64,000 bases of DNA from Escherichia coli (GCF_036507355.1 NZ_AP027877.1), one strand, 5' to 3'; shown: positions 1-58,015, counted from the stretch's first letter. Notes: generated from the sequence alone by a model not told the origin. A program made the numbers and translations.

Positions 1-2016
1 CGGCCATTGTAAAATCCACTGGCGAGCCAGATTACGCTGGCCCGCAAAACGGTGCCAGACGCGGGCAACGGGCAGGGCCAGTTCTGTTGCGCCGAAATTT
101 AAAATTAACGGAAATGTTTCTTTTGGACGATGTGAAAAAGCCAACAGCAGACCTGGTAGCGCATCCAATCCGAGGATACTGAGAAAATAGTCCTCACCCG
201 CGAACAGATGTTTTTTCTCATTGATACGCAGCCAGAAGGTCAAAGCCATCTCACGCGGCAACTGTGCCAATAAATACAGGTTCCAGACACTCTTTTCCGG
301 ACGATAACGTGAGTAGTTGTCATTTTCCCATATGTTAATTAACGCTTCTATGTGACCGCTGCGGAGCGCCTGTTCTGCTAATTGTGCTTCCGGGGAGTTC
401 CAGCCATTCAGGATCTCTTCAACCCGCCCCTGGTAGTAATGCCACTGAACAATGAGTGAATTGCGTGCAGCATCCAGTTTTCCAGGGAGTATATAATTCA
501 AAAACAGCCATACATCATCCCCAAAACCCAGTTCCTGTAATACAACTCGCCCACTTTTTTGTTCCATGCGTTGCGCAAGAGATTCCGTGCTGAAATAACG
601 GGCAGACTCAGTGGCGGCAAGCCTCTCTCGTTCGCCTGGTTGCCAGTAAACTTGCGGAGTTAATTCGAGCCGTGCCAAATCAAGACGTGGAGCTGTCATT
701 TTTTTCTTACTACGCCACGGTGGTGAAACGAGGATTTCAGGCAGATTGCTGTTATCGGTGCCATCAATAACCGGTTTTGGCAGTGCCGATAAATAACTCT
801 TCAGCACTGCCCTGGCTTGAGTACTTAACCACGGTATCACTTCTGCTGCCAGTTGTGGCTGCGATGCCATCAGCGTTTGTAACAGCGTACGCCAGTATTC
901 ATCTCGAGCTTTTTGCTGTGCAGGCAGCTTTTTGTCTTCGATGATTGGATAACCAGGGCGTGCAGGTGGTTCTGTTAACGCCAGCAGTTCTGCCAGTGCG
1001 GCGAGCGTCGCATGGGGGAAGTTTTTATGGTATTTAGCTACACGTTGCAGGCTGGGTTTGTTTTTATCAGCAACTAACAGCAAGGTGCGGATGACTTGCG
1101 GATGGTTAATTTGTACCAGCAGACTGCCGCAATCTTCTTTATGAGCATACATTGCCAGGCGCGGAACGGCTGCCAGTCCTTGTTCGCGCAAAAGGGAGGC
1201 GCAGGCCGCGTAGCCGAAGCGGTTTTCTTGTGACATGTAGCTGGCTTCGCGATCGCTAAATACGTCCAGGCCCCAGTATCGTTCGAGTTTTTTTACCGCC
1301 GTATTATCAGTAGCAACGACCTTTAACCACTCCTTTGAATGGAGACTTGACCGGGAGCTTTCAAGACTGGCGAGTTCATTGGCTATTTCAGGTTTTTCCG
1401 GGAGGATCAGCGCAATAAAAGGACGGCGAATTTTGGGTATTCCTGGCAGTGCGGCAATGAGTTTATCGGCACAACGCTGCCAGCAACTTTCCTCTGCCAG
1501 CGACAGATGCTTACGCAAACGGAGATCGAAATCGTTATAGGTCGCGGAGCCATAACCGTAGCCATAGTCCTCGTCCTGATACTGCAAAGTGACGACCAGT
1601 GAGTCACTCTCATAACGCCGCGCAATGCACTGACGCGATATCACTACATCCGTCGCATATTCCAGCCCCTCTTGTTGCACGATTTCATCAAGTAACTGCT
1701 GGCTGTCATTTTGCGCGATACAGATCAGAGCCGCCATGGTAAGGGCTGGGATTGACGGTTTATGCTCGCCAGTCAAATTGATTGCCTGCTGGATGGCGGA
1801 CTGCCACTCCAGTGAGCATTTATCATAATTCCAGGTGATATTTTCCTTCTGGCCTGCTTGTTGTAGTAATTCATCTCCCAATGTCTGGATGAGACTTCCA
1901 GTGATAACAGGCACCGGTTCGCCCGGCCATTTGCGATGACTGAGTGGTGTTTTGCCTTTTTTATATTTCAGTTCCAGTTGGGCGTTATCCGCCAGCCACG
2001 GTAATTCCTTGTCCAT
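1..2016 (-). CDS. yehI: DUF4132-family protein YehI, 5' portion (gene runs off the window start)
   Basis: Minus-strand frame opens at ATG 2014-2016 (MDKELPWLADNAQLELKYKKGKTPLSHRKWPGEPVPVITGSLIQTLGDELLQ...) and stayed open over the ~150 bp I translated by hand (down to ~1861); openness to position 1 is assumed, since the ORF track omits edge-truncated frames. Position downstream of molR matches K-12 synteny. Confidence 0.6.
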   Translation of the reverse strand, partial: MDKELPWLADNAQLELKYKKGKTPLSHRKWPGEPVPVITGSLIQTLGDELLQQAGQKENITWNYDKCSLEWQSAIQQAINLTGEHKPSIPALTMAALICIAQNDSQQLLDEIVQQEGLEYATDVVISRQCIARRYESDSLVVTLQYQDEDYGYGYGSATYNDFDLRLRKHLSLAEESCWQRCADKLIAALPGIPKIRRPFIALILPEKPEIANELASLESSRSSLHSKEWLKVVATDNTAVKKLERYWGLDVFSDREASYMSQENRFGYAACASLLREQGLAAVPRLAMYAHKEDCGSLLVQINHPQVIRTLLLVADKNKPSLQRVAKYHKNFPHATLAALAELLALTEPPARPGYPIIEDKKLPAQQKARDEYWRTLLQTLMASQPQLAAEVIPWLSTQARAVLKSYLSALPKPVIDGTDNSNLPEILVSPPWRSKKKMTAPRLDLARLELTPQVYWQPGERERLAATESARYFSTESLAQRMEQKSGRVVLQELGFGDDVWLFLNYILPGKLDAARNSLIVQWHYYQGRVEEILNGWNSPEAQLAEQALRSGHIEALINIWENDNYSRYRPEKSVWNLYLLAQLPREMALTFWLRINEKKHLFAGEDYFLSILGLDALPGLLLAFSHRPKETFPLILNFGATELALPVARVWHRFAGQRNLARQWILQWP

Positions 2017-4241
2017 GCTCTTTCCTTATTCAAACAGGGCTTCAATATCGTTAATTAGCTCGCTGGCGGTGATGGCATCGAGTACGGAGAACTGCGCTTC
2101 CTGTGTTGAATTACTCCCCCAGCCATAGCTTTCTGCGTTGCCTTCCCATAGCCACAGCTTGCTTAAGATTTGCTCGGCACTCAGTTCGGCTGGCGACATG
2201 CCTACCGCAAAACCTTCATCGATTTCCATGATTAACGACCAGCGGCCCAGAGGTTTGATCATCCAGCCGATCCAGCCTCCATCCTGCGGGGTGCCCTTTA
2301 TCCAGCCTTTATTCGCCAGCCCCATGACCCGACCGCTCGGGTATTTTCTGCCTGCCCAGCGGGTCAGTTCGCTGGCGTTGCGCTCGGCTTCTGTCAGGGC
2401 GTAACTGTTACGGTCAAGCTGACGGAACGGTGGTAGCAGTTCATAGTCGGCAAAAAGCTGACCAAAGGCGGCAGCATCCGTCGGTGATATTTCCAGAACG
2501 TGAGGAATGCCAACAGAGATATCGCCTTCCGGCAGGGTGAAAAGATCATCGTCAGCGGTGCTGTAGCTGTTATCTTCCGCCACGCGGAAGCACGTCAGTA
2601 GCTGGTTTTCGGTGCTATAAACGCCCCAAATCAGACGGCGGGTTAAGTGGCGTACCAGTGGATGTTCAACCAGGAAGAGCTGAAAGTTTTCTGGCGACCA
2701 GCGGCGACGCAGGCACATGGCGGATTCCAACCTTGCTACCTGCTGGGCGGCGACGGTACGCGCATCTTTTTTCAGCAGTTTGTAGCGGTTAACAGCATCG
2801 TTCGCCTGTGATTCATCATCGCTTTTGTTTGGTTTGGGCAGGTCTTTCAGACGGCTGCCAGAAACATCACGCACAAACGGTTTTAAGGTTTCATCAAAGC
2901 TGACGGTGAACTGGCGTGAGCCGAAATCCAGCAGCAACGAACCGTTATCATCCAGACCGAGATCCGGTGCTAACCGATCTTCAAGCTCTGCCACCGTGAG
3001 TTCGCGGCTCTCGGCAATGTCGGCAATTTTTTCTTTTGCCCGCTCCTGTAATGCTTTGAATTTCAGTTTCTGGGCGATGCCGTTAAGCTGCATCAGGGCG
3101 ATATCACTACCGATAGCAGCGAGAATATCCAACCCAACGGTGGCGCGTTTATGCTGGGATTCACCAGGCCAGGCGCGGATTAATGGCGTCAGTTTGCGGG
3201 CGGTGTCGTCGTTACCGAGAACGCCTAACGCAGCGAACGCCCAACTCTCTTTCGACGGCGCGCCAGCGGTCTGCCAGGCGGTAAACAGATCCCAGGCAAA
3301 TCCCGCCAGTGAGTCGGCGGTACAGGCATCTTTCACCTGCAATAATCCCGGATACAGAGCCTCTTCCTGAGGGAAGCGGAGCATTTCACCGAGGTGGAGG
3401 AGGGCGCTATCTGGCAGTACCTTGCTGCTATTTTTGAGTTTCGGGCGAGTCCATAATGGAGGTTGATAAAACAACGGTAAAGGGGGGATTTTCGCCGGGT
3501 ATTTACCCACAGGACTGTTGTCGTTATTTTTATTTTGAGTTTCCCAGGGCGGCGAGACTAGTACCATTGGTAGAATTTCTGAGTTTGCAAAATCTTCATT
3601 GCGACTATTCAGCAATTGCTGACATTGTTGCAATAAATTTGCCGCTTGCGACGATAATCCGATGACTAATTTTTCGACCAATAAAGAATTTGCATTAAGT
3701 AATGAAACCAGCAATGTATGTTTGCGTTTATCATCTTTTTTTACCAATGCTTCGGCTAATGCCACTATCGTTGCAGAAGGAAAATTTTCGGCACTTTTTA
3801 TTAGTCGTTCATAACAGCGTTTATTAGTATCGGCGGCTTCGATGAGTGCCGTAATGGCCAACGGATGATTAATACATTTCAGTACGTCACCGCAATTATC
3901 TTCTTCAGCATAGGGAGCCAGGCGAGCCAGTGCCGCTATACCTTGCTCCCGTAATACCGTAGCTGACCAACTGGCACCATAGGTGTTAAATACATCAATG
4001 TATTGATAGTTCTCCAGTATTTCGAGCGTGAATGGATCTGTCGCTACCAGTTTCAACATTTCAAGTTGTGGAACATCTACGACCTGGTGTAAACGATGTA
4101 CGATCTCATGGGCCACTTCGGGTATTTCTGGCATTAAAATGGCAATTAACGGTTGGCGATAGAGTGATATATCTGGTAACGCAACGAGTAATTTTGCAAT
4201 GCAATTTTGCCATACTTCTTCTTCTGGGTAATGACTCCAAC

Positions 4242-4745
4242 TTATTGATAGTGTTTTATGTTCAGATAATGCCCGATGACTTTGTCATGCAGCTCCACCG
4301 ATTTTGAGAACGACAGCGACTTCCGTCCCAGCCGTGCCAGGTGCTGCCTCAGATTCAGGTTATGCCGCTCAATTCGCTGCGTATATCGCTTGCTGATTAC
4401 GTGCAGCTTTCCCTTCAGGCGGGATTCATACAGCGGCCAGCCATCCGTCATCCATATCACCACGTCAAAGGGTGACAGCAGGCTCATAAGACGCCCCAGC
4501 GTCGCCATCGTGCGTTCACCGAATACGTGCGCAACAACCGTCTTCCGGAGCCTGTCATACGCGTAAAACAGCCAGCGCTGGCGCGATTTAGCCCCGACAT
4601 AGCCCCACTGTTCGTCCATTTCCGCGCAGACGATGACGTCACTGCCCGGCTGTATGCGCGAGGTTACCGACTGCGGCCTGAGTTTTTTAAGTGACGTAAA
4701 ATCGTGTTGAGGCCAACGCCCATAATGCGGGCTGTTGCCCGGCAT
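4242..4745 (-). CDS. insB: IS1 InsB (made as InsAB' fusion by -1 frameshift)
   Basis: 167-aa ORF overlapping insA in the -1 frame, as expected for IS1. Confidence 0.9.
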
Positions 4746-4939
4746 CCAACGCCATTCATGGCCATATCAATGATTTTCTGGTGCGTACCGGGTTGAGAAG
4801 CGGTGTAAGTGAACTGCAGTTGCCATGTTTTACGGCAGTGAGAGCAGAGATAGCGCTGATGTCCGGCGGTGCTTTTGCCGTTACGCACCACCCCGTCAGT
4901 AGCTGAACAGGAGGGACAGCTGATAGAAACAGAAGCCAC
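4664..4939 (-). CDS. insA: IS1 InsA
   Basis: 91-aa [43 protein letters not shown]..., identical in all four IS1 copies in the window. Confidence 0.9.
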
Positions 4940-5678
4940 TGGAGCACCTCAAAAACACCATCATACACTAAATCAGTAAGTTGGCAGCATCACCAACTCT
5001 GTAATTCCTGGTGTGATATCCGTGACGGCAGGAATGGGAAGTACCGGTAAATCAAATACGGGTATGACATTCTTTTTCTTATTTATTACCCACGGTGGAG
5101 CGACAAGCAGCTCCGGCAACATATCCACAGTGGCATATTCACATTCTTCAGCTACTGGCAGCGGACGACATTCAGATAAGATGCCTGCCGCCTTAGCATT
5201 AACCCAGGGAATGACCTCGCATACTAACTCTGGCGTGGCGGTAATCAGTTTGACAAGCGCTTTACGCCACTCATTATTTTCATGTATTGCCAGCAAAGTA
5301 GCATAAGCGGCAATAGCCGCAGCGGGATGTTTTTGGCAGGCTTTGCTTAAGTATTCCAGGTGCTTTTTCTTGCCATTTACACCGAGGATCAGAATTTGAA
5401 TCGCATCCGGGTGATTCGTTTTCCATAGCCATTTGACAAGATTTTCAGTCTCGCTGATGCGTTCGAAGAGATAAGTGGGATTGTCAGAATGGTCTTCCGT
5501 AAACTAAAGAAGTATCCGGCTTACACCGCGCACCCCAGATACTGCTCTGAGTACAGTGGAAAAATACGATTTCCCACCGTTGTATCGTGATTTTCGTAAT
5601 TTTCGCGCTTATCTGGCAATGTTGTTGGCAAATAATGAGGTGTACTGGCAATAGCGGACACTACCATTTGTTCTTTTT

Positions 5679-6497
5679 TTAAGCAGCCATCTGATGATAT
5701 TTTTCCCTGAAGGCTGCCGGGGAGATATTCCCCAGACGAGAGTGACGACGCTGACGATTGTAGAAAATCTCAATGTATTCCCGTATTACTGAGATGGCTT
5801 CATCCCGGTTATTAAAACGATAGTGGCTCAGGCTCTCATTTTTCAGCGTTCCCCAGAAGCTTTCCATCGGAGCGTTGTCGTAACAGTTACCTTTACGCGA
5901 CATTGATGTTTTCAGACCAAACTGCTCCTGTATGACCCGGTAATCGTATGCGCAGTACTGTGAACCTCGATCAGAGTGGTGGATTAGCCCGGCAGGTGGG
6001 CGCTGGCTCCTGAGCGCCATAAACAGGGCTTTACCTGTCAGCTCTTTTGTCATGCGCTCTCCCATGGCGTAGCCGACAATTTCGCACGTATAAACATCTT
6101 TGATGCCAGCGAGGTACAACCATCCCTCCTGTGTGGCAACATACGTCAGGTCCGCCACCCAGACCTGATTTGGTGCTGTAGGAGCGAACGTCTGGTTCAG
6201 CAGATTTGGCGCAACTGGCAGATTGTGGTTCGAGTTCGTAGTCGCTCTGAACTTGCGTTTCTGCTTACAGCGTAGCCTTAGCTCCTTACGAAGACGTGCC
6301 AGTCGGTCACGACCAACGATGATGCCATTCTCTGCCAGCTCCGTCTGGAGCCGCCGGGTTCCATATGTTTCGCGAGTGCGGATATGTGCCACCTTAATCT
6401 CCAGTTTTAGCCGCTCATCACTTTGTTTTCTGTCTGAGGGTTCATGCTGTACCCAGTTGTAATAACCGCTCCTGGATACACCAAATACCTGACACAT
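5679..6497 (-). CDS. IS3-family transposase OrfB (DDE catalytic part)
   Basis: 272-aa ORF with DDE integrase-core motifs (VWVADLTY...HSDRGSQY...NAPMESFW). Confidence 0.85.
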   Translation of the reverse strand: MCQVFGVSRSGYYNWVQHEPSDRKQSDERLKLEIKVAHIRTRETYGTRRLQTELAENGIIVGRDRLARLRKELRLRCKQKRKFRATTNSNHNLPVAPNLLNQTFAPTAPNQVWVADLTYVATQEGWLYLAGIKDVYTCEIVGYAMGERMTKELTGKALFMALRSQRPPAGLIHHSDRGSQYCAYDYRVIQEQFGLKTSMSRKGNCYDNAPMESFWGTLKNESLSHYRFNNRDEAISVIREYIEIFYNRQRRHSRLGNISPAAFREKYHQMAA

Positions 6498-6532
6498 CGC
6501 TTCAATGGGAAATTGTTGTCGCCATTGTTCGA

Positions 6533-6832
6533 TTAACGCGTATTTTTCAGCGACTCCTGTGCAAAATACGTTGCTTTTTTTAATATATCTCGCTCAAGGC
6601 GAGCTTCATTTAACGCCTTACGCAGTTGCAGAATTTCAGATTCCAGTTCAGCCACCGTGCGGGAACCAGGAGTACCGAGCCCTTTTCTGGCGGCGGTAAC
6701 CCATTGTCCTAAAGTGCCTTCAGGAAGAGATAATCGGGAAGCGCCTTCACTGATCGAAAGTTGATTTTCAAGAACCGTTCTGACAGCTTCGGCTTTGAAC
6801 TCTTTAGAGTAACGTTGGGTTTTTCTGCTCAT
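6533..6832 (-). CDS. IS3-family transposase OrfA (HTH/leucine-zipper part)
   Basis: 99-aa ORF MSRKTQRYSKEFKAEAVRTVLENQLSISEGASRLSLPEG... Confidence 0.85.
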   Translation of the reverse strand: MSRKTQRYSKEFKAEAVRTVLENQLSISEGASRLSLPEGTLGQWVTAARKGLGTPGSRTVAELESEILQLRKALNEARLERDILKKATYFAQESLKNTR

Positions 6833-7939
6833 TATTAGCTCCTTCTGATGCCATTCTATTTCAGGAAGGAGTGTCCGTTAAACTCAGGCTACCTCAATCA
6901 TCGGTTATCACCAGTCTTAACCAGGTCATCGCCGGGACGTTTTGGTCTGCATAGCGTAGAGCTATAGCATGGGCGATATCCGGGCGTTCAGGGAGCAGTA
7001 ACGCCGCAAAAGGTTGCCGTGCGGGGGATAGCGTCGGAATGGCGGTGAGTACTTTATCTACACAGCGTTGCCACTCATCTTCTGAAGCGAGTGAAAGATG
7101 ATGACATAGACGTTGATGCCAACTAGGTAGCGATTCTGCTTTGTGATTAGGTGGAATGATGGTGGTTACTGCGCCTTTTACTGGTTTATATTTGAGTTGA
7201 AGGGCAAAAAGGACGATTTCAACGGCGCTTTCCAGACCACAGCGAATGACTAAGTCATCGACCAGTTCATCTGCAGAGTAAGAGTTCCAAAAACTCCAGA
7301 GCAATGCTGCATCAGATTGCGCACTCCCTGTCTGTTGATTATCCAGAATTCGCCTTTGTAACTCAGCAAAAGCCTGCTGCCAGTTTTCAGGATAAGAGCG
7401 GTAATTGTTGTCGGGATCATATGCCCTGGTGTTATTCGCGATGCGTTGCCATATTTGACCATCTTTGTGCAGATAATTGATCTCTCTGGGGCGAGAACGA
7501 TGAGGAAAAGCAAATCGATTAATATCGCCAGTTATCGGAATGACTGCGTCATCAACCAGCCATGGGCGTTGGATTTTACTCTCAGGGGAAGATTCAACTT
7601 CAGGAGTGGCTTTGGTGATGGGGGGGATATGCACGTTTGCTGAAGCATTTTCTACATAGCCTTTTTTCGTTTTCTCTGCGATCAGCTTAAGCTTCGCTTT
7701 TTCCGCTGCTGCAACATCAGCAAAATTTTTTACCTGGCTTTGCCCTTGGGTACCAACTTTCCCCCAGCTGATATGCAACTCGTTTCCCTGCTGCTCCACC
7801 GCCCAGAATTTATGTGATTTTTCGTCCTGATAGATATAACTCTTCATCCGCGTTCCCTGTATTTATATCCAGTTATAAGCGGATGCTAGCAGTTAATGAA
7901 AAAAATTAAGAGCGTTGAACAAACAAGAAAACAACTTTA

Positions 7940-7976
7940 GGAATTTATAAAGAAAAGGCGCTGTCGATGCAGCGCC
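7940..7976 (-). terminator. Rho-independent terminator downstream of metG
   Basis: Hairpin GGCGCTG-TCGATG-CAGCGCC at 7957..7976, followed on the minus strand by TTTTCTTTAT. Confidence 0.55.
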
Positions 7977-7987
7977 TTGAAGGGGGA

Positions 7988-10021
7988 TTATTTCACCTGA
8001 TGACCCGGTTTAGCACCGGCATCCGGGCTTAGCAGGAAGATATCTTTCCCGCCAGGACCGGCAGCCATCACCATGCCCTCAGAGATACCGAAGCGCATTT
8101 TACGTGGTGCCAGGTTAGCCACCATAATGGTGTGACGACCAATCAGTGCCTGCGGATCCGGGTAGGCAGAACGAATGCCAGAGAAGACATTGCGTTTTTC
8201 ACCGCCGAGATCCAGCGTCAGGCGCAGCAGTTTGTCAGAACCTTCAACAAACTCTGCGTTTTCAATAAGCGCCACGCGCAGGTCAACTTTAGCGAAGTCG
8301 TCAAAGGTGATGGTTTCCTGAATCGGATCATCTGCCAGTGGGCCAGTAACTGGCGCGGCAGCTGCTTTCACTTCTTCTTTAGACGCTTCCACCAGTGCTT
8401 CAACCTGCTTCATATCGATGCGGTTATACAGCGCTTTGAACGGATTCACTTTGTGGCCCAGCAGAGGTTGCTGGATACCATCCCAGGTCAGTTCTGTATT
8501 GAGGAATGCTTCTGCGCGCTCGGTCAGTTTCGGCAGTACCGGCTTCAGGTAAGTCATCAGCACGCGGAACAGGTTGATGCCCATTGAGCAAATCGCCTGC
8601 AGGTCAGCATCGCGGTCTTCCTGTTTTGCCACCACCCACGGAGCCTGTTCATCGACATAGCGGTTAGCCAGATCAGCCAGCGCCATGATTTCGCGCACTG
8701 CTTTACCAAATTCGCGGCTTTCCCACGCTTCACCAATCACTTCAGCGGCATCAGTGAAGGTTTTGTACAACTGCGGGTCAGCCAGTTCGCTTGCCAGCAC
8801 ACCGTCAAAACGCTTGTTGATAAAGCCCGCATTACGAGAGGCCAGGTTAACCACTTTGTTAACGATATCAGCATTCACGCGCTGAACGAAATCTTCCAGG
8901 TTGAGATCGATATCATCAATGCGCGAAGAGAGTTTCGCAGTGTAGTAGTAACGCAGGCTGTCGGCGTCAAAATGATTCAGCCAGGTGCTGGCTTTAATAA
9001 AGGTACCGCGAGACTTAGACATCTTCGCGCCGTTCACCGTCACATAGCCATGAACAAACAGGTTGGTCGGCTTGCGGAAGTTGCTGCCTTCCAGCATTGC
9101 TGGCCAGAACAGACTGTGGAAGTAAACAATATCTTTACCGATGAAGTGGTACAGCTCGGCGGTGGAGTCTTTCTTCCAGTATTCATCGAAGCTTACGCTG
9201 TCGCCGCGCTTGTCGCACAGATTCTTGAAAGAACCCATATAGCCAATCGGCGCATCTAGCCAGACGTAGAAATATTTACCCGGCGCGTTCGGAATTTCAA
9301 AACCGAAGTACGGCGCGTCGCGGGAGATATCCCACTGTTGCAGGCCAGATTCAAACCACTCCTGCATTTTATTTGCCACCTGCTCCTGCAACGCACCGCT
9401 GCGGGTCCATGCCTGCAACATTTCGCTGAAAGAGGGCAGATCAAAGAAGAAGTGTTCAGAATCACGCATTACCGGCGTAGCGCCAGAAACCACCGATTTC
9501 GGCTCGATCAATTCAGTCGGGCTGTAGGTCGCGCCGCAGACTTCGCAGTTATCGCCGTATTGATCCGGGGATTTACATTTCGGGCAGGTGCCTTTTACAA
9601 AACGGTCCGGCAGGAACATGCCTTTTTCCGGATCGTACAGCTGAGAGATGGTGCGGTTTTTAATAAAACCGTTTTCTTTCAGGCGAGAGTAGATAAGTTC
9701 TGACAACTGGCGGTTCTCTTCGCTGTGCGTCGAGTGATAGTTGTCATAGCTGATGTTAAAGCCTGCGAAATCAGTCTGATGCTCCTGACTCATTTCGCCA
9801 ATCATCTGCTCCGGGGTGATACCCAGCTGCTGAGCTTTCAGCATGATCGGTGTACCGTGGGCATCGTCGGCGCAGATGAAGTTGACCTCGTGGCCGCGCA
9901 TTCGCTGGTAACGGACCCAGACATCAGCCTGGATGTGCTCCAGCATATGGCCGAGGTGGATTGAGCCGTTAGCGTACGGCAGTGCGCACGTCACCAGAAT
10001 TTTCTTCGCGACTTGAGTCAT
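7988..10021 (-). CDS. metG: Methionine--tRNA ligase
   Basis: 677-aa product from [31 protein letters not shown] (HIGH motif), KMSKS present, C-terminal tRNA-binding domain. The ORF track's start 3 codons upstream (MPTM) is probably an over-extension. Confidence 0.95.
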
Positions 10022-17361: not shown

Positions 17362-17622
17362 ATACTCTCCACTTTGGGGATCAGTAAAATCAGTCGTATA
17401 TCTTTCCCGCCATACAATATAACCGACAAGAGATATTTTGTTAGTGATCCCGTGATTTCGTAAAAAGTGTAAATGAAAGGATGTAGCAAAAGCATCCTCA
17501 TTGAGCGAGAAGTGAGCGGAATAAGCTGATTTAAGAATCATCCTGGGCTAAAAGGATAGCGAAGCCCGGTGATGCTGCCAACTTACTGATTTAGTGTATG
17601 ATGGTGTTTTTGAGGTGCTCCA

Positions 17623-17898
17623 GTGGCTTCTGTTTCTATCAGCTGTCCCTCCTGTTCAGCTACTGACGGGGTGGTGCGTAACGGCAAAAGCACCGCCGGA
17701 CATCAGCGCTATCTCTGCTCTCACTGCCGTAAAACATGGCAACTGCAGTTCACTTACACCGCTTCTCAACCCGGTACGCACCAGAAAATCATTGATATGG
17801 CCATGAATGGCGTTGGATGCCGGGCAACAGCCCGCATTATGGGCGTTGGCCTCAACACGATTTTACGTCACTTAAAAAACTCAGGCCGCAGTCGGTAA
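17623..17898 (+). CDS. insA: IS1 InsA
   Basis: Identical 91-aa InsA. Confidence 0.9.
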
Positions 17899-18320
17899 CC
17901 TCGCGCATACAGCCGGGCAGTGACGTCATCGTCTGCGCGGAAATGGACGAACAGTGGGGCTATGTCGGGGCTAAATCGCGCCAGCGCTGGCTGTTTTACG
18001 CGTATGACAGGCTCCGGAAGACGGTTGTTGCGCACGTATTCGGTGAACGCACGATGGCGACGCTGGGGCGTCTTATGAGCCTGCTGTCACCCTTTGACGT
18101 GGTGATATGGATGACGGATGGCTGGCCGCTGTATGAATCCCGCCTGAAGGGAAAGCTGCACGTAATCAGCAAGCGATATACGCAGCGAATTGAGCGGCAT
18201 AACCTGAATCTGAGGCAGCACCTGGCACGGCTGGGACGGAAGTCGCTGTCGTTCTCAAAATCGGTGGAGCTGCATGACAAAGTCATCGGGCATTATCTGA
18301 ACATAAAACACTATCAATAA
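17817..18320 (+). CDS. insB: IS1 InsB
   Basis: Identical 167-aa InsB. Confidence 0.9.
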
Positions 18321-18355
18321 GTTGGAGTCATTACCGCGAAGCCCAGGTGATTGTT

Positions 18356-19189
18356 TTATCTCATAATACCCATAAAGCCATGCACTCCCATATACACCCC
18401 GACTAAACCAATTAACAGACTGGAAAAATAGGGGGCGCGTTTAGCGAGAGTGTTAAATCCGCTCCAGCGTTTTGCAACTTGTTGAACACTGATTGCCGCT
18501 CCAACGCCTACTGTAACCAGCGTTAATGCCAGGCCGATGCTGAAACTGACGACCAGTGTTGCGCCCAGTGTCAGGGCTTTCAACTGAATGCAAATCAATA
18601 GCACGGTAATTGCTGCCGGGCAGGGAATAAGGCCACCTGTTAAGCCAAATAACAAAATTTGCCAGTTGGTGACCTCTCTACCATCAAAGCGTCGTTTAAT
18701 GTCATTGGCATGGGCTCGTGCATGGGCATCCTGATACTCTTCGTTGTCGCCATGTTCATGATGGTGATGATGTTCGTGGTCGTGGTCTTGATGATGTTCG
18801 TGATCGTGATGATGGTGATCATGCCCGTACATATTCTCCAGCCAGTTGCGTTCGCCGCGCCAGGTACGCCAGAACATCCAGAAAGCGGTGCTAATAATGA
18901 TCACTGCGGAAATCAACTGGAGCCACGGTTCTGCTGATTGAGCAGTAAAGCGCTTGCTGATCACCATCCCGCCAAAGGCAATCAACCAGACCACTGCGGT
19001 ATGCGAAATGGTTGCTGCCAGTCCGAGCATCACCGCCTGTTTAATGGTGCCTTTGATGGCGATGATAAACGCCGCCATCATCGTTTTTGAGTGCCCTGGT
19101 TCCAGGCCATGAAGCGCACCAAGTAAGATGGCGCTGGGGATGAAGAACCAGGCGTTTCCTTGCTGAAGAAGAGTTGTAAATTCGATCAT
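18356..19189 (-). CDS. rcnA: Nickel/cobalt efflux transporter RcnA
   Basis: 277 aa, multi-pass membrane protein with His-rich loop (HDHHHHDHEHHQDHDHEHHHHHEHGD). Confidence 0.95.
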   Translation of the reverse strand: MIEFTTLLQQGNAWFFIPSAILLGALHGLEPGHSKTMMAAFIIAIKGTIKQAVMLGLAATISHTAVVWLIAFGGMVISKRFTAQSAEPWLQLISAVIIISTAFWMFWRTWRGERNWLENMYGHDHHHHDHEHHQDHDHEHHHHHEHGDNEEYQDAHARAHANDIKRRFDGREVTNWQILLFGLTGGLIPCPAAITVLLICIQLKALTLGATLVVSFSIGLALTLVTVGVGAAISVQQVAKRWSGFNTLAKRAPYFSSLLIGLVGVYMGVHGFMGIMR

Positions 19190-19220
19190 GATAATAATTC
19201 TTAGTATTAATTCGGCAATC

Positions 19221-19262
19221 TGATTCTACTCCCCCCCAGTACCTGATACTACCCCCCAGTAG
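19221..19262. promoter_or_regulatory. RcnR operator sites in the rcnR-rcnA divergent promoter
   Basis: Two TACT-C7/C6-AGTA elements (TACTCCCCCCCAGTA and TACTACCCCCCAGTA), the G/C-tract inverted-repeat type bound by RcnR. Confidence 0.75.
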
Positions 19263-19309
19263 ATTAATAGTGCTATGATTTTTCATGTTCTTGTTAACCA
19301 GGTGTTGCC

Positions 19310-19582
19310 ATGTCTCATACAATCCGTGATAAACAGAAACTGAAAGCGCGTGCCAGTAAGATTCAGGGCCAGGTCGTGGCGCTCAAGAAAATGCTCGACG
19401 AGCCGCACGAATGCGCTGCAGTTTTACAACAGATTGCTGCTATCCGTGGCGCGGTAAACGGTCTGATGCGGGAAGTGATTAAAGGTCATCTAACGGAACA
19501 TATCGTTCACCAGGGGGATGAGCTAAAACGTGAAGAAGATCTGGATGTTGTTCTGAAGGTGCTGGATTCTTATATCAAATGA
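19310..19582 (+). CDS. rcnR: Ni/Co-responsive repressor RcnR (CsoR/RcnR family)
   Basis: 90-aa [64 protein letters not shown]. Confidence 0.95.
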
Positions 19583-19691
19583 AAGTGCCTAATATGGCCG
19601 TAGTTGAGGCAATAAATAGAGGGACAAGTGACGTTAAGCTGAATTAGAGTAAATGGCGTGAGGACACACGCCATTCGAGGTTATAGTTTGA

Positions 19692-20006
19692 TTAATTTTC
19701 GAAAAATTGCTTCACAGCCCAGCCACCATGACCACCTGGAGTTATGAATGAAACAAAACCTTTGTCATCTACGCTCTGGATTTCTACCGTCATTGATTCA
19801 TCTAACACGCGACATTTATTGGATGTAATGAGACTCAGCATAGCCTGTTGGTCATTGTCCAGGATGTAACTGATCATCTCGTAAAAGTCAGTTAACTTTT
19901 TACAGTTAAATGTACCTTCTTTAAGTGTTGCGCTGTCTCCGTGACTTAGTGCGAATGCATTTGGCATCATTGCCACAAAGATGACGGTAACGAGTAGTTT
20001 TTTCAT
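19692..20006 (-). CDS. Hypothetical small secreted protein (two Cys), accessory
   Basis: 104-aa ORF; N-terminal signal peptide MKKLLVTVIFVAMMPNAFA; I recognise no family. Confidence 0.5.
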   Translation of the reverse strand: MKKLLVTVIFVAMMPNAFALSHGDSATLKEGTFNCKKLTDFYEMISYILDNDQQAMLSLITSNKCRVLDESMTVEIQSVDDKGFVSFITPGGHGGWAVKQFFEN

Positions 20007-20015
20007 TTTAGCCTC

Positions 20016-20363
20016 TTATAATTCAGAACATTCACTGATGTTGTAAGTGCCTTTTCTACCATCATCGTTTACGAGATGTAGCACGAAGATGATGGGATTG
20101 GCATCAATGAAAGATACAGAGACGTTCCCGCTTTCGGTGCTATACATCTTTGCAATCTGTTTTTCACCAATATATGAGAGATCCCAACTCACTCCGTTCA
20201 AGCTAAAATGCATCTGTTTGCCGACAATATCGATGGAGGATTGTGCCGTAACGGTTTTCCCATTGCTGCCAATTTGACCCTGCTGAAGAGCATCACATTT
20301 ATAGGAGCTTGCATAAGTAGATAGAGGTAGTAGCAGAAGTGCAGCAAAAATTTTACTCTTCAT
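20016..20363 (-). CDS. Hypothetical small secreted protein (Cys near both ends of mature chain), accessory
   Basis: 115-aa ORF; signal peptide MKSKIFAALLLLPLSTYA; lies 9 bp upstream of the preceding ORF on the same strand. Confidence 0.5.
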   Translation of the reverse strand: MKSKIFAALLLLPLSTYASSYKCDALQQGQIGSNGKTVTAQSSIDIVGKQMHFSLNGVSWDLSYIGEKQIAKMYSTESGNVSVSFIDANPIIFVLHLVNDDGRKGTYNISECSEL

Positions 20364-21414
20364 ATTTTCCCTTTGCTTGGATTTGAGTTACCTATTTTGG
20401 GGTAGTCATTATAAAACTATTAATTAGTAAAACGAACAAGTTTTCATTTGTTTAGCAATGGTATTGTTTAGGTTTGAAATTATTACGTATTTTCATAGCA
20501 ATAGATTGGATAAACAGCAGTTCAGGGAACAAGTTGCACTATCTACATACTTTTCCGCTTTCCATTGCATGTTAGGTAATAGATAGCCTTTGCCCGTAAG
20601 ACTAAAAATATTAGAAATGACTCATTCGAATACCTTCTATTCACCTTAATATAGGTTTGATTATTGTAATCGTTTAATGTGTCTTATGGATTTTTTCCTA
20701 CTTTTCATTTGCATAATATAGGGGGCACAGCATGCTCTTGAAATTAATTATTAAAATATTTAAATTTTACAGCACACAACTACTTTTCGTTGTCTTATGT
20801 GTTGAACGTACTTCGAGTATAGGTAGGGTTGTATATATATTGCGTGGGTAGAGTTAGAATAGAGGAAGCATCATTTATAGAATATTCAAGAACGTTAGCC
20901 TGTGATCAATAAATAAAAATATCAAATGGTGTTCAAACATATTTTTCTATGAAAAATCCAGCCATCTATGATGAATTTTTAGATCCATTTTAATTAAAGT
21001 ATGATTATGAACCAAGATTTAGCCAAGAATGGTGGTATAGCGCGTATCCAATGACACCGGAAAACGCATCTATGAAGTCCTTATTTATCTCTATAAGAGG
21101 AAATCAACACTAATAAAATGTAGTGATGTAACATATCGAGCAGGTTGCTCTGATGCTGGTCTTCAACTGTGGCTTAAACAGCTATCAAACTTCGGTGTTA
21201 TTGAGATGAAAGAATTATCATTCTCAACTATCAATCTCAAAAAGCTAGAGAAAATAGACCTTAATTATTCCACTCTCTAAATTTATCTATTTATTTAAAG
21301 TAAAAATGAAAATATTATGGTATCAGCCACGTGGTGGTAACTGGTTTTTATGATCATAGGTACATATACAGGGAACCCTGGAAAACGAAAGTAATATATT
21401 GATGATTTCGTTTG

Positions 21415-21654
21415 TTATAACTTCGTGGTATCAAGTCCGGCGGCTTTGAGTCGCTCGGTAAGATTTCTCATTTTGCTGAACTCTGTAGCAAAGCTGGCTT
21501 TAAGTCCTACACCTTCGCAAAACTCTTTTGCCGTGACGTTTTTCAGATGGTCAGCGTATTTGATCATCTGGAGGTGCATTTCCATCGTTTGGCTATTTCG
21601 TGGTGCGCTGCTAATGGCTTGCTTAATGTTCTCGTAGATCTGGGTTTCTGTCAT
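21415..21654 (-). CDS. Hypothetical small protein, possible HTH DNA-binding
   Basis: ORF-track frame 21415..21672; an internal Met (MTETQIYEN...) is preceded by GGTGAG at suitable spacing. The segment AKEFCEGVGLKASFATEFSKM looks helix-turn-helix-like. Sits at the edge of an AT-rich islet. Confidence 0.4.
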   Translation of the reverse strand: MTETQIYENIKQAISSAPRNSQTMEMHLQMIKYADHLKNVTAKEFCEGVGLKASFATEFSKMRNLTERLKAAGLDTTKL

Positions 21655-21852
21655 TTTTATCTCACCTATCAAATTTAGATAAATAATATAAATTAGCTAA
21701 TTAAGATAGTCTACAGTTTTTACCACCTGAATGATGGGTGTGAATTGTTTCTTTTTCATTACTGATATGGGGTACACAGTGAAGACGTAATGAATGGATG
21801 CGAGCTTGCATCTGCAAGTCACTTCCCCTAATCTGGCACAAAATATAGAGAT

Positions 21853-21987
21853 TCAACCAAACGACTCGGGGTGCCCTTCTGCGTGAAGGCTGAGAAATAC
21901 CCGTATCACCTGATCTGGATAATGCCAGCGTAGGGAAGTCACGGACCACCAGGTCATTGCTTCTTCACGTTATGGCAGGAGCAAACT
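21853..21987 (+). promoter_or_regulatory. TPP (THI-box) riboswitch in the thiM leader
   Basis: CTCGGGGTGCCCTTCTGCGTGAAGGCTGAGAAATACCCGTATCACCTGATCTGGATAATGCCAGCGTAGGGAA directly upstream of the thiM start. Confidence 0.9.
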
Positions 21988-22776
21988 ATGCAAGTCGACC
22001 TGCTGAGTTCCGTGCAATCTGCGCACACGTTACACCTTTTTCACCAACATTCCCCTCTTGTGCATTGCATGACCAACGATGTGGTGCAAACCTTTACTGC
22101 CAATACCTTGCTGGCGATCGGTGCATCGCCAGCGATGGTTATCGAAACCGAAGAGGCCAGTCAGTTTGCGGCTATCGCCAGTGCCTTGTTGATTAACGTT
22201 GGCACACTGACGCAGCCACGCGCACAGGCGATGCGTGCTGCCGTTGAGCAAGCAAAAAGCTCTCAAACACCCTGGACGCTTGATCCAGTAGCGGTTGGTG
22301 CGCTCGATTATCGCCGCCATTTTTGTCATGAACTTTTATCTTTTAAACCGGCAGCGATACGTGGTAATGCTTCGGAAATCATGGCATTAGCTGGCGTTGC
22401 TAATGGTGGACGGGGAGTGGATACCACTGACGCCGCAGCTAACGCGATACCCGCTGCACAAACACTGGCACGGGAAACTGGCGCAATCGTCGTGGTCACT
22501 GGCGAGGTGGATTATGTTACCGATGGCCATCGCGCCGTTGGCATTCACGGTGGCGATCCGTTAATGACCAAAGTGGTAGGAACTGGCTGTGCATTATCGG
22601 CGGTTGTCGCTGCCTGCTGTGCGTTACCAGGCGATACGCTGGAAAATGTCGCATCTGCCTGTCACTGGATGAAACAAGCCGGAGAGCGCGCAGTCGCCAG
22701 AAGCGAGGGGCCAGGCAGTTTTGTTCCACATTTCCTTGATGCGCTCTGGCAATTGACGCAGGAGGTGCAGGCATGA
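21988..22776 (+). CDS. thiM: Hydroxyethylthiazole kinase
   Basis: 262-aa ORF; 4-bp overlap with thiD. Confidence 0.95.
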
Positions 22777-35475: not shown

Positions 35476-36255
35476 ATGACGATGAATTCATTCGAGCGAA
35501 GGAATAAGATCATCCAATTAGTGAATGAACAGGGAACCGTGCTTGTTCAGGATCTGGCGGGAGTATTTGCTGCCTCGGAAGCGACAATCCGTGCCGATTT
35601 GCGCTTTCTCGAACAAAAAGGCGTGGTTACGCGCTTTCATGGCGGTGCGGCGAAAATAATGTCCGGTAATAGTGAAACCGAGACCCAGGAAGTCGGGTTT
35701 AAAGAGCGATTTCAGCTCGCCAGCGCGCCAAAAAACAGAATAGCGCAGGCGGCAGTCAAAATGATCCACGAAGGGATGACCGTTATTCTCGACAGCGGAA
35801 GTACGACAATGCTTATCGCCGAAGGATTAATGACCGCCAAAAATATCACGGTGATTACCAACAGTCTCCCGGCAGCGTTTGCCCTTTCCGAAAATAAAGA
35901 CATTACTCTGGTCGTCTGTGGTGGCACGGTCCGCCATAAAACGCGCTCGATGCATGGTTCCATTGCCGAGCGTTCATTGCAGGATATTAATGCCGATTTA
36001 ATGTTTGTCGGTGCTGATGGTATTGATGCGGTTAATGGTATTACGACCTTTAATGAAGGTTATTCGATTAGCGGGGCGATGGTCACCGCCGCAAATAAAG
36101 TGATTGCCGTTCTCGATTCATCGAAATTTAATCGTCGCGGTTTTAATCAGGTACTGCCAATCGAAAAAATTGACATTATTATTACCGATGATGCCGTGTC
36201 AGATGTGGATAAACTGGCATTGCAGAAGACACGGGTAAAATTAATTACGGTGTAG
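35476..36255 (+). CDS. gatR: DeoR-family repressor of the gat operon (intact here)
   Basis: 259 aa; N-terminal HTH and C-terminal DeoR sugar-binding domain; uninterrupted, unlike K-12 where an IS3 splits gatR (from memory). Confidence 0.85.
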   Translation: MTMNSFERRNKIIQLVNEQGTVLVQDLAGVFAASEATIRADLRFLEQKGVVTRFHGGAAKIMSGNSETETQEVGFKERFQLASAPKNRIAQAAVKMIHEGMTVILDSGSTTMLIAEGLMTAKNITVITNSLPAAFALSENKDITLVVCGGTVRHKTRSMHGSIAERSLQDINADLMFVGADGIDAVNGITTFNEGYSISGAMVTAANKVIAVLDSSKFNRRGFNQVLPIEKIDIIITDDAVSDVDKLALQKTRVKLITV

Positions 36256-37959: not shown

Positions 37960-38117
37960 GAATATTTTTTGGTAAGCGCCAAACATGCGCGTTCTGGTTG
38001 TGCTTAGCCGGAACCTGTGCGAGCACGATGCCGTTACGTGAAAGGCATCGTGCTATGAAGGGAGATTCTATCGATGTGGTCAATGGAAGACGGTGACCAG
38101 GGATAGGGCTTATGCAT

Positions 38118-38204
38118 AAAAAATAAGCCCGTGTAAGGGAGATTACACAGGCTAAGGAGGTGGTTCCTGGTACAGCTAGCATTTTATGGGTTATGTTTTT
38201 CAGC
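38118..38204 (-). ncRNA. cyaR: Hfq-dependent sRNA CyaR (RyeE)
   Basis: Reverse complement reads GCTGAAAAACATAACCCATAAAATGCTAGCTGTACCAGGAACCACCTCCTTAGCCTGTGTAATCTCCCTTACACGGGCTTATTTTTT, which matches CyaR as I remember it, including the terminator hairpin and U-tail. Confidence 0.85.
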
Positions 38205-39752: not shown

Positions 39753-40049
39753 TTAGCTCCAGTGTAAATGTCTGGTGGCGTCCTGGTTTTGGTTAAGGAT
39801 ACGAATGACGATAATTTCCCCTGGTGATTGCAGGAAATAAATTACGTGGCGTTCAAAAGGAAGAACAAAAATACCTTCGCCTAATTCAGGTCTGGGCGTA
39901 CCTATATTATTGTTACTCAGAATCTGGAGAACGTCTGAAAGATGTTCCACATATCTGTCGGCTTGTGGTTCGCCGAAATGGTGATAACTGTAATACCAGA
40001 TGCCTTCTAAATCCTCATTGGCTTTTGGCATGAGTTTAATAATACGCAC
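39753..40049 (-). CDS. ParE/RelE-superfamily toxin (ParE-like)
   Basis: 98-aa ORF MRIIKLMPKANEDLEGIWYYSYHHFGEPQADRYVEHL...IVIRILNQNQD; 1-bp gap to the upstream antitoxin gene. Confidence 0.7.
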   Translation of the reverse strand: MRIIKLMPKANEDLEGIWYYSYHHFGEPQADRYVEHLSDVLQILSNNNIGTPRPELGEGIFVLPFERHVIYFLQSPGEIIVIRILNQNQDATRHLHWS

Positions 40050-40050
40050 A

Positions 40051-40302
40051 TTATTTCCTTATCCCTGCTTTCACCTTCCGTAAAAACGCGTCCTTTTCCC
40101 ACGGCTGAGCTTCACCACTACTCAACCCTTCTGCAAGCATGTCACGTAACGCTTGCAGGCGAGACTCTGCTTGCTTTTCTCGAAGTAAGCGCAGTGACTC
40201 ACGGATCACTTCGCTTTGGGTGCGATAGTCGCCGGATTCAATTAAGGACTCGATAAATTCACGCAACTCATCGCCGAGATCAACCGTCATCGTTCTGGCC
40301 AT
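40051..40302 (-). CDS. ParD-like (ribbon-helix-helix) antitoxin
   Basis: 83-aa ORF MARTMTVDLGDELREFIESLIESGDYRTQSEVIRESLRLLREKQ; immediately upstream of the toxin. Confidence 0.7.
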   Translation of the reverse strand: MARTMTVDLGDELREFIESLIESGDYRTQSEVIRESLRLLREKQAESRLQALRDMLAEGLSSGEAQPWEKDAFLRKVKAGIRK

Positions 40303-52435: not shown

Positions 52436-52721
52436 CCTTCACGTTCAGAATGTCAATCCGCAGGCTTTGCAGTCTGCGATCCTGCCAGCAAATATTCTTT
52501 GCGAGACGTTACGCAATAATCACAGAGGAAACTATTTTGTTCACGCGTTAGCGATAGACTGAATTCAGGGCGAAAGGAGGTAAGCCGACGATTTCAGCGG
52601 GACGCTGAAACGGGAAAGCCCCTCCCGAGGAAGGGGCCTTAAATAAGGTAAGTTGCACATTTAAAATCTCTTTAATTATCAATAAACTACAATGTATAGG
52701 TCATTATTAGTCAAAATAAAA

Positions 52722-53612
52722 TCATTTGTTGATTTCAATTTTGTCCCATTCTCTCCCTCGGCTATCCCTATACCGCGCCGCCATTGAATCTGATTTATGT
52801 CCGAGAAGACGTTGAGCAAACTTATCGCCAATCTGATTCCGGTATAGCCTCGCCGACAGGCTACGCAGTTCATGGAATGTTGGTGGGTCTCCATCAAATG
52901 AGAGTCCAGATGCATTTCTCGCCTTTGTAAAATACTTCGATACTGTTTTCGGGGAAAGCGGTTCGTGATGCGTTGAGGCGATTATAGTTTCACTGCCGCT
53001 GGCCTCCCTGCATTTCTGTAGTGTATCAGCCAATGAGATATTGAGCGCGTCAATCGTTAGCATCAGCGGAATGGCGAGCTTAGCCCCTGTTTTACCCTGT
53101 TCAATGTGAAGATGGTTGTCGTTTATGTCTGACCATTTCATTCTGCACAAATCGCCGACTCTCTGCCCTGTAACGACAGCCGAATCCATCGCCAGTCTTA
53201 GCCAGATTGGGAGAGGTTCGGCTGCATGGTAAATCGCGACATACTCATTAGCTGTCAGCCTTGAGCGCCTTACTTCTGACTTTGCTGTGCGGGTTGCTGT
53301 TACCGGATTCGTTTCCACATGCCCCTCGGCTATTGCCTCACGAAAAACGTCAACAAGGGTTGACCTGATTAATTTTGCGGAAGCCGCTTTACCTTCTGCT
53401 ACGTAGGTGTTTAGCATTGCTGCCACCTCTTTCGTTGATATGTCAGCGAGCGGTTTGTCCGGCAATTTTCTTCGGATTGCCCTGATTTTGCTGGCGTAGT
53501 CGAGTAGAGTTTTCGTCCTGATCCCCCTCTCGCTGAGGATTGTTTCATATCGGTCAAGCCACGCATGAAGAGTGATTACGTCAGCGCCTTTAATCCTGTC
53601 TATCAGTGAGGT
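52722..53612 (-). pseudogene. int: Lambda-family tyrosine integrase, C-terminal fragment (truncated by IS600-like insertion)
   Basis: C-terminus ...HELRSLSARLYRNQIGDKFAQRLLGHKSDSMAARYRDSRGREWDKIEINK resembles the lambda Int C-terminus (catalytic R, H-x-x-R, Y). Frame remains open upstream of the first Met up to the IS600 end at 53613. Confidence 0.8.
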
Positions 53613-54122
53613 AGCCTGAGTTTAACGGACACTCCTTCCTGAAATAGAATGGCATCAGAAGGAGCTAATAATGAGCAGAAAAACCCAACGTTACTCTAAA
53701 GAGTTCAAAGCCGAAGCTGTCAGAACGGTTCTTGAAAATCAACTTTCGATCAGTGAAGGCGCTTCCCGATTATCTCTTCCTGAAGGCACTTTAGGACAAT
53801 GGGTTACCGCCGCCAGAAAAGGGCTCGGTACTCCTGGTTCCCGCACGGTGGCTGAACTGGAATCTGAAATTCTGCAACTGCGTAAGGCGTTAAATGAAGC
53901 TCGCCTTGAGCGAGATATATTAAAAAAAGCAACGTATTTTGCACAGGAGTCGCTGAAAAATACGCGTTAATCGAACAATGGCGACAACAATTTCCCATTG
54001 AAGCGATGTGTCAGGTATTTGGTGTATCCAGGAGCGGTTATTACAACTGGGTACAGCATGAACCCTCAGACAGAAAACAAAGTGATGAGCGGCTAAAACT
54101 GGAGATTAAGGTGGCACATACG
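53613..54122 (+). mobile_element. IS600-like element, 5' fragment only
   Basis: Left end TGAGGTAGCCTGAGTTTAACGGACAC at 53613; complete OrfA (53671..53970, identical to the other copy); OrfB matches only for about 38 residues (MCQVFGVSRSGYYNWVQHEPSDRKQSDERLKLEIKVAH) then diverges. Confidence 0.75.
53671..53970 (+). CDS. IS3-family transposase OrfA
   Basis: Identical to the 99-aa OrfA at 6533..6832. Confidence 0.85.
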   Translation: MSRKTQRYSKEFKAEAVRTVLENQLSISEGASRLSLPEGTLGQWVTAARKGLGTPGSRTVAELESEILQLRKALNEARLERDILKKATYFAQESLKNTR

Positions 54123-54149
54123 GTAACAAGCCGATACATGCCACACGCA

Positions 54150-54747
54150 TTACTCACCCTCTTTGATGCGAATGCCAGCGGCGCGTGGCACATTAACTTC
54201 CACGATGCGCACTGTTGGTTTGTACATCTCAATCGCTGTCAGCCAGTCAGCTCCTGTCATGCGCTTTTCCGCATCGCCATTAGTCCACTGAACCGGTACA
54301 CCAATAGCCTTCATCGCGATTTCTATTTCCCCGGCAATGGCGCTTTTTCCGCAACCAGTAAAACCAGAAACAACGACAAGAACTTCACCTTTGGCTGGTT
54401 TTATTTCCCGTGCTTCCAGTTCTGCAATGCGCTTACTTCCATCCGCGATTACTCCCTCGTAATATTCACGCTGCTCGTTGAGTTTTGATTTTGCTGCTTC
54501 AAGCTCAACTCTCAGCTTCCCTACCGTTAGCGCAATATCCTCGTTCTCCTGGTCACGGGATTTGATGTATTGCTGGTTTCTTTCCCGTTCATCCAGAAGC
54601 GCCAGCACGGTTGCCGGATTAGCCTTGGCAACAAAATCACGGACTGGCTTACAATCAATCTCAGCAATGGGTTGATACGATGTGTATCCATGCTGTCTTG
54701 TATAACTACCGTGACGAATAACGAAAAAATCACCATTTATTTTTTTA
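54150..54747 (-). pseudogene. Phage early-region protein fragment (Ead/Ea22-like, tentative), N-terminus removed by IS1
   Basis: Reading frame enters from inside IS1 (the ORF-track start codon lies within the IS1 end); C-terminal part ...LVVVSGFTGCGKSAIAGEIEIAMKAIGVPVQW. The family assignment is by resemblance only. Confidence 0.4.
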
Positions 54748-54771
54748 GCCTGCCACGGTAATGACTCCAAC

Positions 54772-55469: not shown

Positions 55470-55548
55470 TGGAGCACCTCAAAAACACCATCATACACTA
55501 AATCAGTAAGTTGGCAGCATCACCGCCTGCCACGGTAATGACTCCAAC

Positions 55549-56246: not shown

Positions 56247-56296
56247 TGGAGCACCTCAAAAACACCATCATACACTAAATCAGTAAGTTGGCAGCA

Positions 56297-57959: not shown

Positions 57960-58015
57960 GGTACGCCTTTATCCGTGACAACACCTGTTGCTGGCCTGTT
58001 CGCCTGCTCTGTCGG

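Follow-up and report, generated by a model that had tools for sequence, protein, structure and literature searches.

A deletion at IS1 and a 98-bp inversion beside IS600 in the remains of a tandem WGR/DUF4132 gene pair of Escherichia coli

What series of events leaves three gene fragments, an IS1 and an IS600 lying between metG and yehI, with neither insertion sequence (IS) flanked by a direct target duplication? The question is raised by a stretch of 64,000 nucleotides (nt) of an Escherichia coli chromosome (GCF_036507355.1, NZ_AP027877.1), here called the window, with positions counted from its first letter. From metG to yehI the minus strand carries all genes, in the order metG (10021-7988), the damaged region (7847-2026) and yehI (from 2016). 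As the alignments indicate, this region is the remains of two co-directional tandem paralogs, of 1268 and then 1010 residues, between metG and yehI in an IS-rich lineage of E. coli/Shigella type. Two separate transposable-element events, one of IS1 and one of IS600, would have wrecked the pair. Our explanation for the locus combines an adjacent deletion by IS1 with a two-step insertion and inversion of IS600 by way of a native sequence that mimics its terminal repeat, and we place the probability of the whole at roughly 0.6. The more particular proposal, that the IS600 transposase recruited this native coding sequence as insertion target and then as surrogate end, leaving a small inversion, is tentative, and we grant it a little short of even odds.

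Two paralogs and an exact deletion at IS1

Close relatives were found by look-up of the exact 677-residue MetG, with metG (7988-10021, minus strand), the intact upstream neighbour, serving as anchor. Three complete 4.8-Mb genomes with an identical MetG (L008, L009 and L010: GCA_900608085.1, GCA_900607725.1 and GCA_900607805.1) match the window at 99.87-99.95% identity once the IS elements are set aside, and their locus is IS-free. Between metG and yehI they hold an intact gene for a 1268-residue protein and, 12 nt further downstream, an intact gene for a 1010-residue paralog, each with the Pfam domains WGR and DUF4132. Protein alignment distributes the window's fragments over these two genes. 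The minus-strand piece at 2026-4226 is the 3′ 2,201 nt of the paralog (residues 279-1010 and the stop codon); its segment 2029-4224 is 99.7% identical to residues 279-1010 of the 1010-residue protein of L008 and only 30-61% identical to the 1268-residue protein, and there are 2 mismatches to L008 in 4,226 nt. The 1268-residue gene supplied an internal piece at 4995-5537 (minus strand, codons 350-529; 99.4% to residues 350-529 over 4995-5536) and its 5′ piece at 6897-7847 (minus strand, codons 1-316; 99.7% to residues 1-316 over 6900-7847). A Pfam scan places DUF4132 (PF13569, E=1e-52) in 2029-4224 and WGR (PF05406) in the product of 6897-7847, an N-terminal protein of 317 residues whose frame is closed by a TGA that the IS600 tip creates. 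An exact protein look-up of the 702-residue product of the paralog fragment found no record. At 5506 the internal piece of the 1268-residue gene carries a nonsense single-nucleotide polymorphism (SNP), GAA to TAA on the coding strand, which is consistent with decay following inactivation of that gene.

A sequence-only reading of this DNA had taken the three fragments for one molR-like frame interrupted twice. Its ends at 2026 and 7847 are indeed a genuine stop codon and a genuine start codon, but the idea of a single frame is wrong, because protein alignment assigns the fragments to two different paralogs. The name molR is an older one for the K-12 yehF/yehH locus, and the comparison with K-12 explains how the fragments may be seen as pieces of one gene. 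K-12 and other E. coli have a one-gene haplotype of the 1264-residue type, annotated in K-12 as yehF plus the yehH pseudogene, a single locus of 3.8 kb; viewed from there, the fragments resemble parts of a single gene, and the C-terminal 495 residues of fragment 2029-4224 are 93.5% identical to the 1264-residue protein, whose own last 495 residues show about 94% identity to the 1010-residue paralog. Across its N-terminal two thirds, however, that protein is only 37-45% identical to either paralog, and with the N-terminal fragment it shares 37.7%, so single-gene orthology to K-12 molR fails. What the window shares with K-12 molR (yehF/yehH) and yehI is the position between metG and yehI and the WGR/DUF4132 domain family; it differs in that its lineage descends from the two-gene haplotype (1268 and 1010 residues). 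That two IS elements cut one molR gene into three, the IS1 at the cost of some sequence, is therefore hardly credible: close relatives with identical MetG keep two intact genes at the locus, and the first fragment belongs to the 1010-residue paralog and not to the source of the second and third. Among strains with identical MetG (L006-L012 compared), both metG-yehI haplotypes occur, with either one gene (1264 residues) or two. In the two-gene relatives L008-L010, yehI is itself split (19036-22034) into frames of 847 and 344 residues.

The IS1 at 4227-4994 (768 bp, minus strand) has its left terminal inverted repeat (IRL) at the 4994 end, with an exact match to the IRL 23-mer. Its minus-strand open reading frames (ORFs) are insA-like (4664-4939, 91 residues) and insB-like (4242-4745, 167 residues). 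It is 100% identical to the window's three other IS1 copies and 98-99% identical to E. coli elements annotated as IS1A family. The 9-bp flanks are unrelated: CTTCTTCTG (4218-4226) stands at the end with the right terminal inverted repeat (IRR), where the reference continues with CTAGTGATA instead of IS1, and AACTCTGTA (4995-5003) stands at the IRL end, where three independent assemblies have the same IS1 junction. The direct duplication of a simple insertion is thus missing here; the copy at 17568-18335, taken for comparison, bears GCGAAGCCC on either side as a perfect 9-bp duplication. Over 300-4226 the window runs collinear with L008 as far as L008 position 16826; from 4995 it resumes at L008 13763. 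IS1 stands in place of exactly 3,062 bp (L008 13764-16825), with no other bases gained or lost, and comparison with E. coli A30 shows the same gap. The missing DNA takes in the final 2,218 nt of the 1268-residue gene, the 12 nt between the two genes and the initial 832 nt of the 1010-residue paralog; the deletion spans the boundary of two tandem genes, since 2026-4226 is the 3′ part of the paralog and only 4995-7847 comes from the 1268-residue gene.

On the IS1 the sequence-only reading fares well. It had pointed to the differing flanks and suggested a deletion or recombination rather than a simple insertion, and this stands because CTTCTTCTG and AACTCTGTA simply border the gap in the reference: in the near-identical relatives L008-L010 they are two sides of the same 3,062 bp, which also quantifies the sequence missing at this junction. 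Alignment uncovered no mis-registered duplication of 8-9 bp. A flank shared by the IS1 copies at 4227 and 17568, as a 6-nt extension of the inverted repeat, was considered and rejected; only 4 bases match, the copy at 17568 has its own duplication, and the likeness falls within the tolerance of repeat extension.

IS1 would have inserted at one of the two present junctions, and the adjacent 3,062 bp would then have been removed, most simply in an ‘adjacent deletion’ by intramolecular replicative transposition, after which a single IS1 without a duplication remains. Adjacent (replicative) deletions mediated by IS1 were reportedly described by Turlan & Chandler in 1995, and the window resembles them in the one IS1 kept at the junction, in the lack of a duplication and in deleted DNA that begins exactly at the IS1 end. 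The resemblance has its limit in that no intermediate is observed and the product fits equally well a recombination between two IS1 copies. For that alternative, IS1 would have inserted twice in direct orientation, at CTTCTTCTG and at AACTCTGTA, and homologous recombination would have dropped the intervening DNA together with one IS1. The identity of the two end products counts against our preference for an adjacent deletion, and IS1 is abundant and a good recombination substrate, since the window alone holds four identical copies. Recombination costs three events, though, and an adjacent deletion two, and no relative with either single insertion was found in a collection limited to genomes labelled E. 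coli, which places Shigella-labelled relatives outside the search. We consider the two-insertion route unlikely, though the strongest of the alternatives raised here, and keep the adjacent deletion as the probable origin of the gap.

A 98-bp inversion beside IS600 and a native terminal-repeat mimic

The second element is an IS600 of the IS3 family (5636-6896, minus strand, 1,261 bp), with its IRR tip at 5636 and its IRL tip at 6896, an orfA at 6533-6832 (99 residues) and an orfB at 5679-6497 (272 residues). Four independent E. coli copies, each 1,264 bp long and annotated as ‘IS3-like element IS600 family transposase, programmed frameshift’, define its limits; they start with TGAGGTGTACTGG and end with GGCTACCTCA. 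The window's termini are identical to these, with TG...CA ends and imperfect terminal repeats, and the element departs from one of the four (L013) at 2 SNPs and by the in-frame loss of one codon (3 bp) from orfA. The four comparison copies are flanked by direct 3-bp duplications (TAC, CAT, AGT and TGT). The window copy has none: its flanks are TAA and ATC, and ATC is instead doubled as an inverted pair. An IS600-like element interrupting the gene had been recognised earlier, and IS600 does lie at 5636-6896; this is not a plain interruption, however, and the 98-bp inversion and inverted 3-bp target duplication that accompany it had been missed.

The rearrangement can be read base by base. In the ancestor, 5537 is followed by 98 bp whose reverse complement stands at window 5538-5635; this segment is a piece of the 1268-residue gene (codons 317-349), now on the plus strand, starting with GAT and ending with TAA next to the IS600 IRR. 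The ancestral order is ...CGCACCCCA | TTATTTGCC...GCAGTATC | ATCGG, and the window has ...CGCACCCCA | GATACTGC...GGCAAATAA | IS600 | ATC | ATCGG. All ancestral bases are present exactly once at the IS600 site, plus one additional ATC (6897-6899), which forms an inverted pair with GAT at 5538-5540, so that the ancestor's ATCATC corresponds to GAT ... ATCATC in the window. The inverted segment is bounded by this inverted 3-bp duplication at CA tips, ...CACCCCA|GAT and ...CCTCA|ATC. One breakpoint is thus the IRR tip of IS600, and the other is the CA tip of a native sequence that mimics the IS600 terminal repeat.

This mimic, TGGGGTGCGCGGTGTAAGCCGGATACTTCT (5508-5537, minus strand), is native gene sequence and identical in the ancestral-type references. 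Its 30 bp contain the CGGATACT block and a TG tip, and of the 20 positions that the IRL and IRR of IS600 have in common it agrees at 15; the match covers the tip (TGgGGT) and the subterminal block CGGACACT (CGGAtACT). Among 127,940 window positions, a score of 15/20 is found only at three true IS600 ends and at the mimic, the sole site outside an IS. The flanks of 82 other IS600 copies, 429,000 positions in all, hold only four other sites with the score of the mimic (about 1e-5 per position); two of these resemble ends of a related IS, none lies at a breakpoint, and the signature of a mimic at a breakpoint was found in 0 of the 82 copies. In both arms of the inversion the native sequence persists until at most 2 bp from the breakpoints, a pattern expected of cleavage by a transposase and not of a homology-driven exchange.

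Could these junctions be errors of assembly? Both the inversion and the IS1 junction adjoin repeated IS elements, where assembly is most error-prone. Three independently assembled contigs from other samples (two ENA metagenome assemblies and GCA_905398585.1) are nonetheless 99.9-100% identical to window 4871-5713, and the junctions within that interval are not artefactual, because all three carry them in identical form. The contigs cover the junctions of IS1 with the gene, of the gene with the inverted 98 bp and of the 98 bp with IS600, and leave out the left IS1 junction at 4226/4227; the nonsense SNP at 5506 is common to them. A further contig of GCA_905398585.1 has the junction of IS600 with ATC and the IS1 at 17568. 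Besides GCA_905398585.1, junctions of the locus recur in the samples ERR3330519, SRR31122001, ERR2380891 and ERR2359765. We give an artefact practically no credence.

The behaviour of IS600 at large was surveyed in an unbiased set of 76 distinct full-length copies (IMG/VR contigs, L017-L136). A direct 3-bp duplication is present in 27 of them and missing from 49; most IS600 copies in these prophage-derived contigs therefore underwent secondary rearrangement or recombination. A target motif (TGTTGG followed by an A-rich run), seen beside IRR in the four E. coli copies, was rejected, as no motif appears at the 27 sites with duplications; it is a selection artefact, because BLAST had ranked those four copies by the similarity of their flanks to the query.

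Possible routes to the inversion

How, then, could the element and 98 bp of its neighbourhood have reached their present order? We propose two steps. In the first, IS600 would have inserted at the triplet TTA with its IRL facing and abutting the mimic, and the resulting arrangement of mimic, TTA and IRL would resemble the junction of an IS3-family circle or tandem dimer. In the second, the transposase would cut the 3′ ends of mimic and IRL, and both cut ends would integrate into the triplet ATC of the same molecule, which lies 95 bp past IRR, in the topology that yields an inversion; IS600 and the 98 bp would be inverted together, the TTA spacer lost and ATC doubled as an inverted pair. The predicted product reads, between the left and right flanks, GAT, the reverse complement of 92 bp, TAA, IS600 and ATC. 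Simulated on L008, the two-step model reproduces window 4995-7999 save for 2 SNPs, both off the junctions, one of them being that at 5506.

The chemistry has precedent within the family. In IS3-family circles the two ends abut across 3-4 bp and integrate as a unit; both are cut at the 3′ end, and the target is staggered by 3 bp (PMC2909936). The transposase contacts the repeat in its subterminal portion, with the tip left free for catalysis (PMC7780238). The second step would parallel the reactivity of tandem-dimer junctions: in abutted ends such as the IRR-IRL junction of IS911 or (IS30)2, reportedly treated by Olasz in 1993 and by Kiss & Olasz in 1999, ends 3-4 bp apart are cut at their 3′ ends and co-integrated into a 3-bp staggered target with loss of the spacer, and when the target lies on the same molecule, DNA is either deleted or, with an inverted target duplication, inverted. 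Here, unlike in those junctions, one end would be a mimic in host sequence, and since this is so the event in the window would be a one-off that destroyed its junction. For the first step the likeness is to the insertion of IS911 next to IS ends, where an IS3-family element lands beside a sequence that its transposase takes for an end. Such targeted insertion was reportedly studied by Loot et al. in 2002 and Rousseau et al. in 2008. The present case would differ in the element, IS600, and in an ‘end’ that is native gene sequence agreeing at 15/20 conserved positions. Surrogate-end (‘one-ended’) transposition of IS911, reportedly the work of Polard et al. in 1994, is a further parallel, as a fortuitous repeat-like sequence serves the transposase as second end; that work used plasmid assays with engineered one-ended donors, and the window would hold a natural chromosomal trace.

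One possible alternative dispenses with an insertion at the mimic. IS600 would have inserted at ATC in its present orientation, and the transposase would have paired IRR with the mimic 98 bp away, made flush breaks and let the segment be rejoined flipped. This flip uses the same mimic and reproduces the observed sequence exactly, and for its first step it would be enough that IS600 landed by chance no more than about 100 bp from a mimic-quality site, of which a genome has some 100 (an extrapolated number). Its cost lies in the second step, which requires four flush strand breaks and rejoining by the host, whereas IS3-family transposases are described as cutters of 3′ ends only (copy-out/paste-in). 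On paper, when two ends face outward at a distance of 98 bp, the standard reactions lead to deletions or to hairpins and to no inversion. We rate the flip below the two-step route, as an improbable course, though a more serious one than any inversion without the transposase. The latter, a template switch during replication or a recombination between short inverted repeats of the gene and the IS600 tip, can point to arms that are partly complementary, at 6 of 7 positions at the tips. The pairing is poor, however, with in-register perfect runs of a few bases around a 98-nt loop, and the arms keep their own sequence, including a mismatch at tip position 3, so that any exchange is confined to at most 2 bp at the CA/TG tips, the position at which a transposase cleaves. 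We regard such an origin as very improbable. Four further schemes were derived on paper and rejected for their products: if IRR attacked the mimic in figure-eight fashion, 95 nt would be deleted; deletions or hairpins would result if the two outward-facing ends integrated into the 98-bp spacer; recombination after the arrival of a second IS600 would leave an extra IS and extra triplets; and a replicative (Shapiro-type) inversion would leave two IS copies.

Several observations weigh against the two-step route. The flip, starting from an ordinary IS600 insertion at ATC, ends in the same string, and for this reason sequence alone cannot separate the two. IS600 insertions show no enrichment beside repeat-like sequences: 13 of 76 sites score 10 or more, against about 12 expected. 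The predicted 354-residue product of the state after step 1 has no record, a degenerate pattern of its junction is absent from the genome and metagenome contig collections, and no intermediate was found. None of 5,426 complete E. coli genomes shares the IS1 or the IS600 junction. Insertion beside IS ends is documented for IS911, and we know of no such case for IS600. With these points counted, the two-step route is still the one that we favor for the IS600 half of the explanation.

Other features of the window and what the locus may record

Downstream of the damaged pair, yehI enters the window with its 5′ part (1-2016, minus strand; start codon at 2014-2016), truncated by the window start; it encodes a DUF4132 protein and maps to yehI of E. 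coli A30 and K-12. The same two IS families recur elsewhere. The IS1 at 17568-18335 lies just downstream of rcnA and is missing in L008-L010, which have an IS3-family element about 100 bp off (L008 ~1339-2552). Two identical tandem IS1 copies (54757-55524 and 55534-56301) are separated by a 9-bp spacer, GCCTGCCAC; the same 9 bp precede the first copy, and a different flank, CTTCCTTGA, follows the second. The arrangement at 54757-56301 looks like a tandem IS1 dimer with one side rearranged. A second IS600 copy (53607-54756), in the opposite orientation, shares with the first an identical stretch of 519 nt counted from IRL, in which the loss of one orfA codon recurs; past that point the copy is divergent or cut short, and it continues into the IS1 tandem, and no IRR end was found in it. 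This IS600 copy and the IS1 tandem belong to a 10-kb segment not in K-12 (52653-62688), situated between sibA-like and sibB-like repeats, which also contains a truncated phage-type integrase (52722-53465), a further IS3-family element (57675-58828) and a gtrA / gtrB / GtrII-type cassette for O-antigen glucosylation (62342-59580). The segment looks like a degraded serotype-converting prophage remnant.

Further differences from K-12 are scattered over the window. At 39753-40302, a 769-bp insertion between yegP and trhP has two small ORFs with overlapping ends (98 and 83 residues), and its layout resembles a toxin-antitoxin pair. An additional 2.3 kb between rcnR and thiM (19581-21853) includes two ORFs, of 104 and 115 residues, that gave no Pfam match when tested. 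The IS3E insertion in gatR and the PR-X/ogrK prophage remnant of K-12 are both absent (window 35778-35780 and 38110-38135), and gatR appears uninterrupted.

For annotation, the locus should be recorded as two pseudogene remnants, of the 1268-residue WGR/DUF4132 gene and of its 1010-residue paralog, and not as one split molR; the inverted 98-bp piece belongs to the 1268-residue gene. The genome is IS-rich and in decay, and the events themselves are of kinds already known for IS elements; no new system is involved. The lost genes are without known function, and comparable IS-driven decay is commonplace in Shigella-like lineages. For the study of mobile elements, the IS600 site is a natural case in which each base may be explained by known IS3-family chemistry acting on a host mimic of an IS end, and it indicates that an IS copy without a duplication can conceal a local inversion and not necessarily a large rearrangement. 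If the process proves general, IS3-family elements would generate a class of short inversions at their flanks and of ‘duplication-less’ copies, which standard IS annotation mistakes for plain insertions, and such scars would record the chemistry of abutted-end junctions on natural chromosomes.

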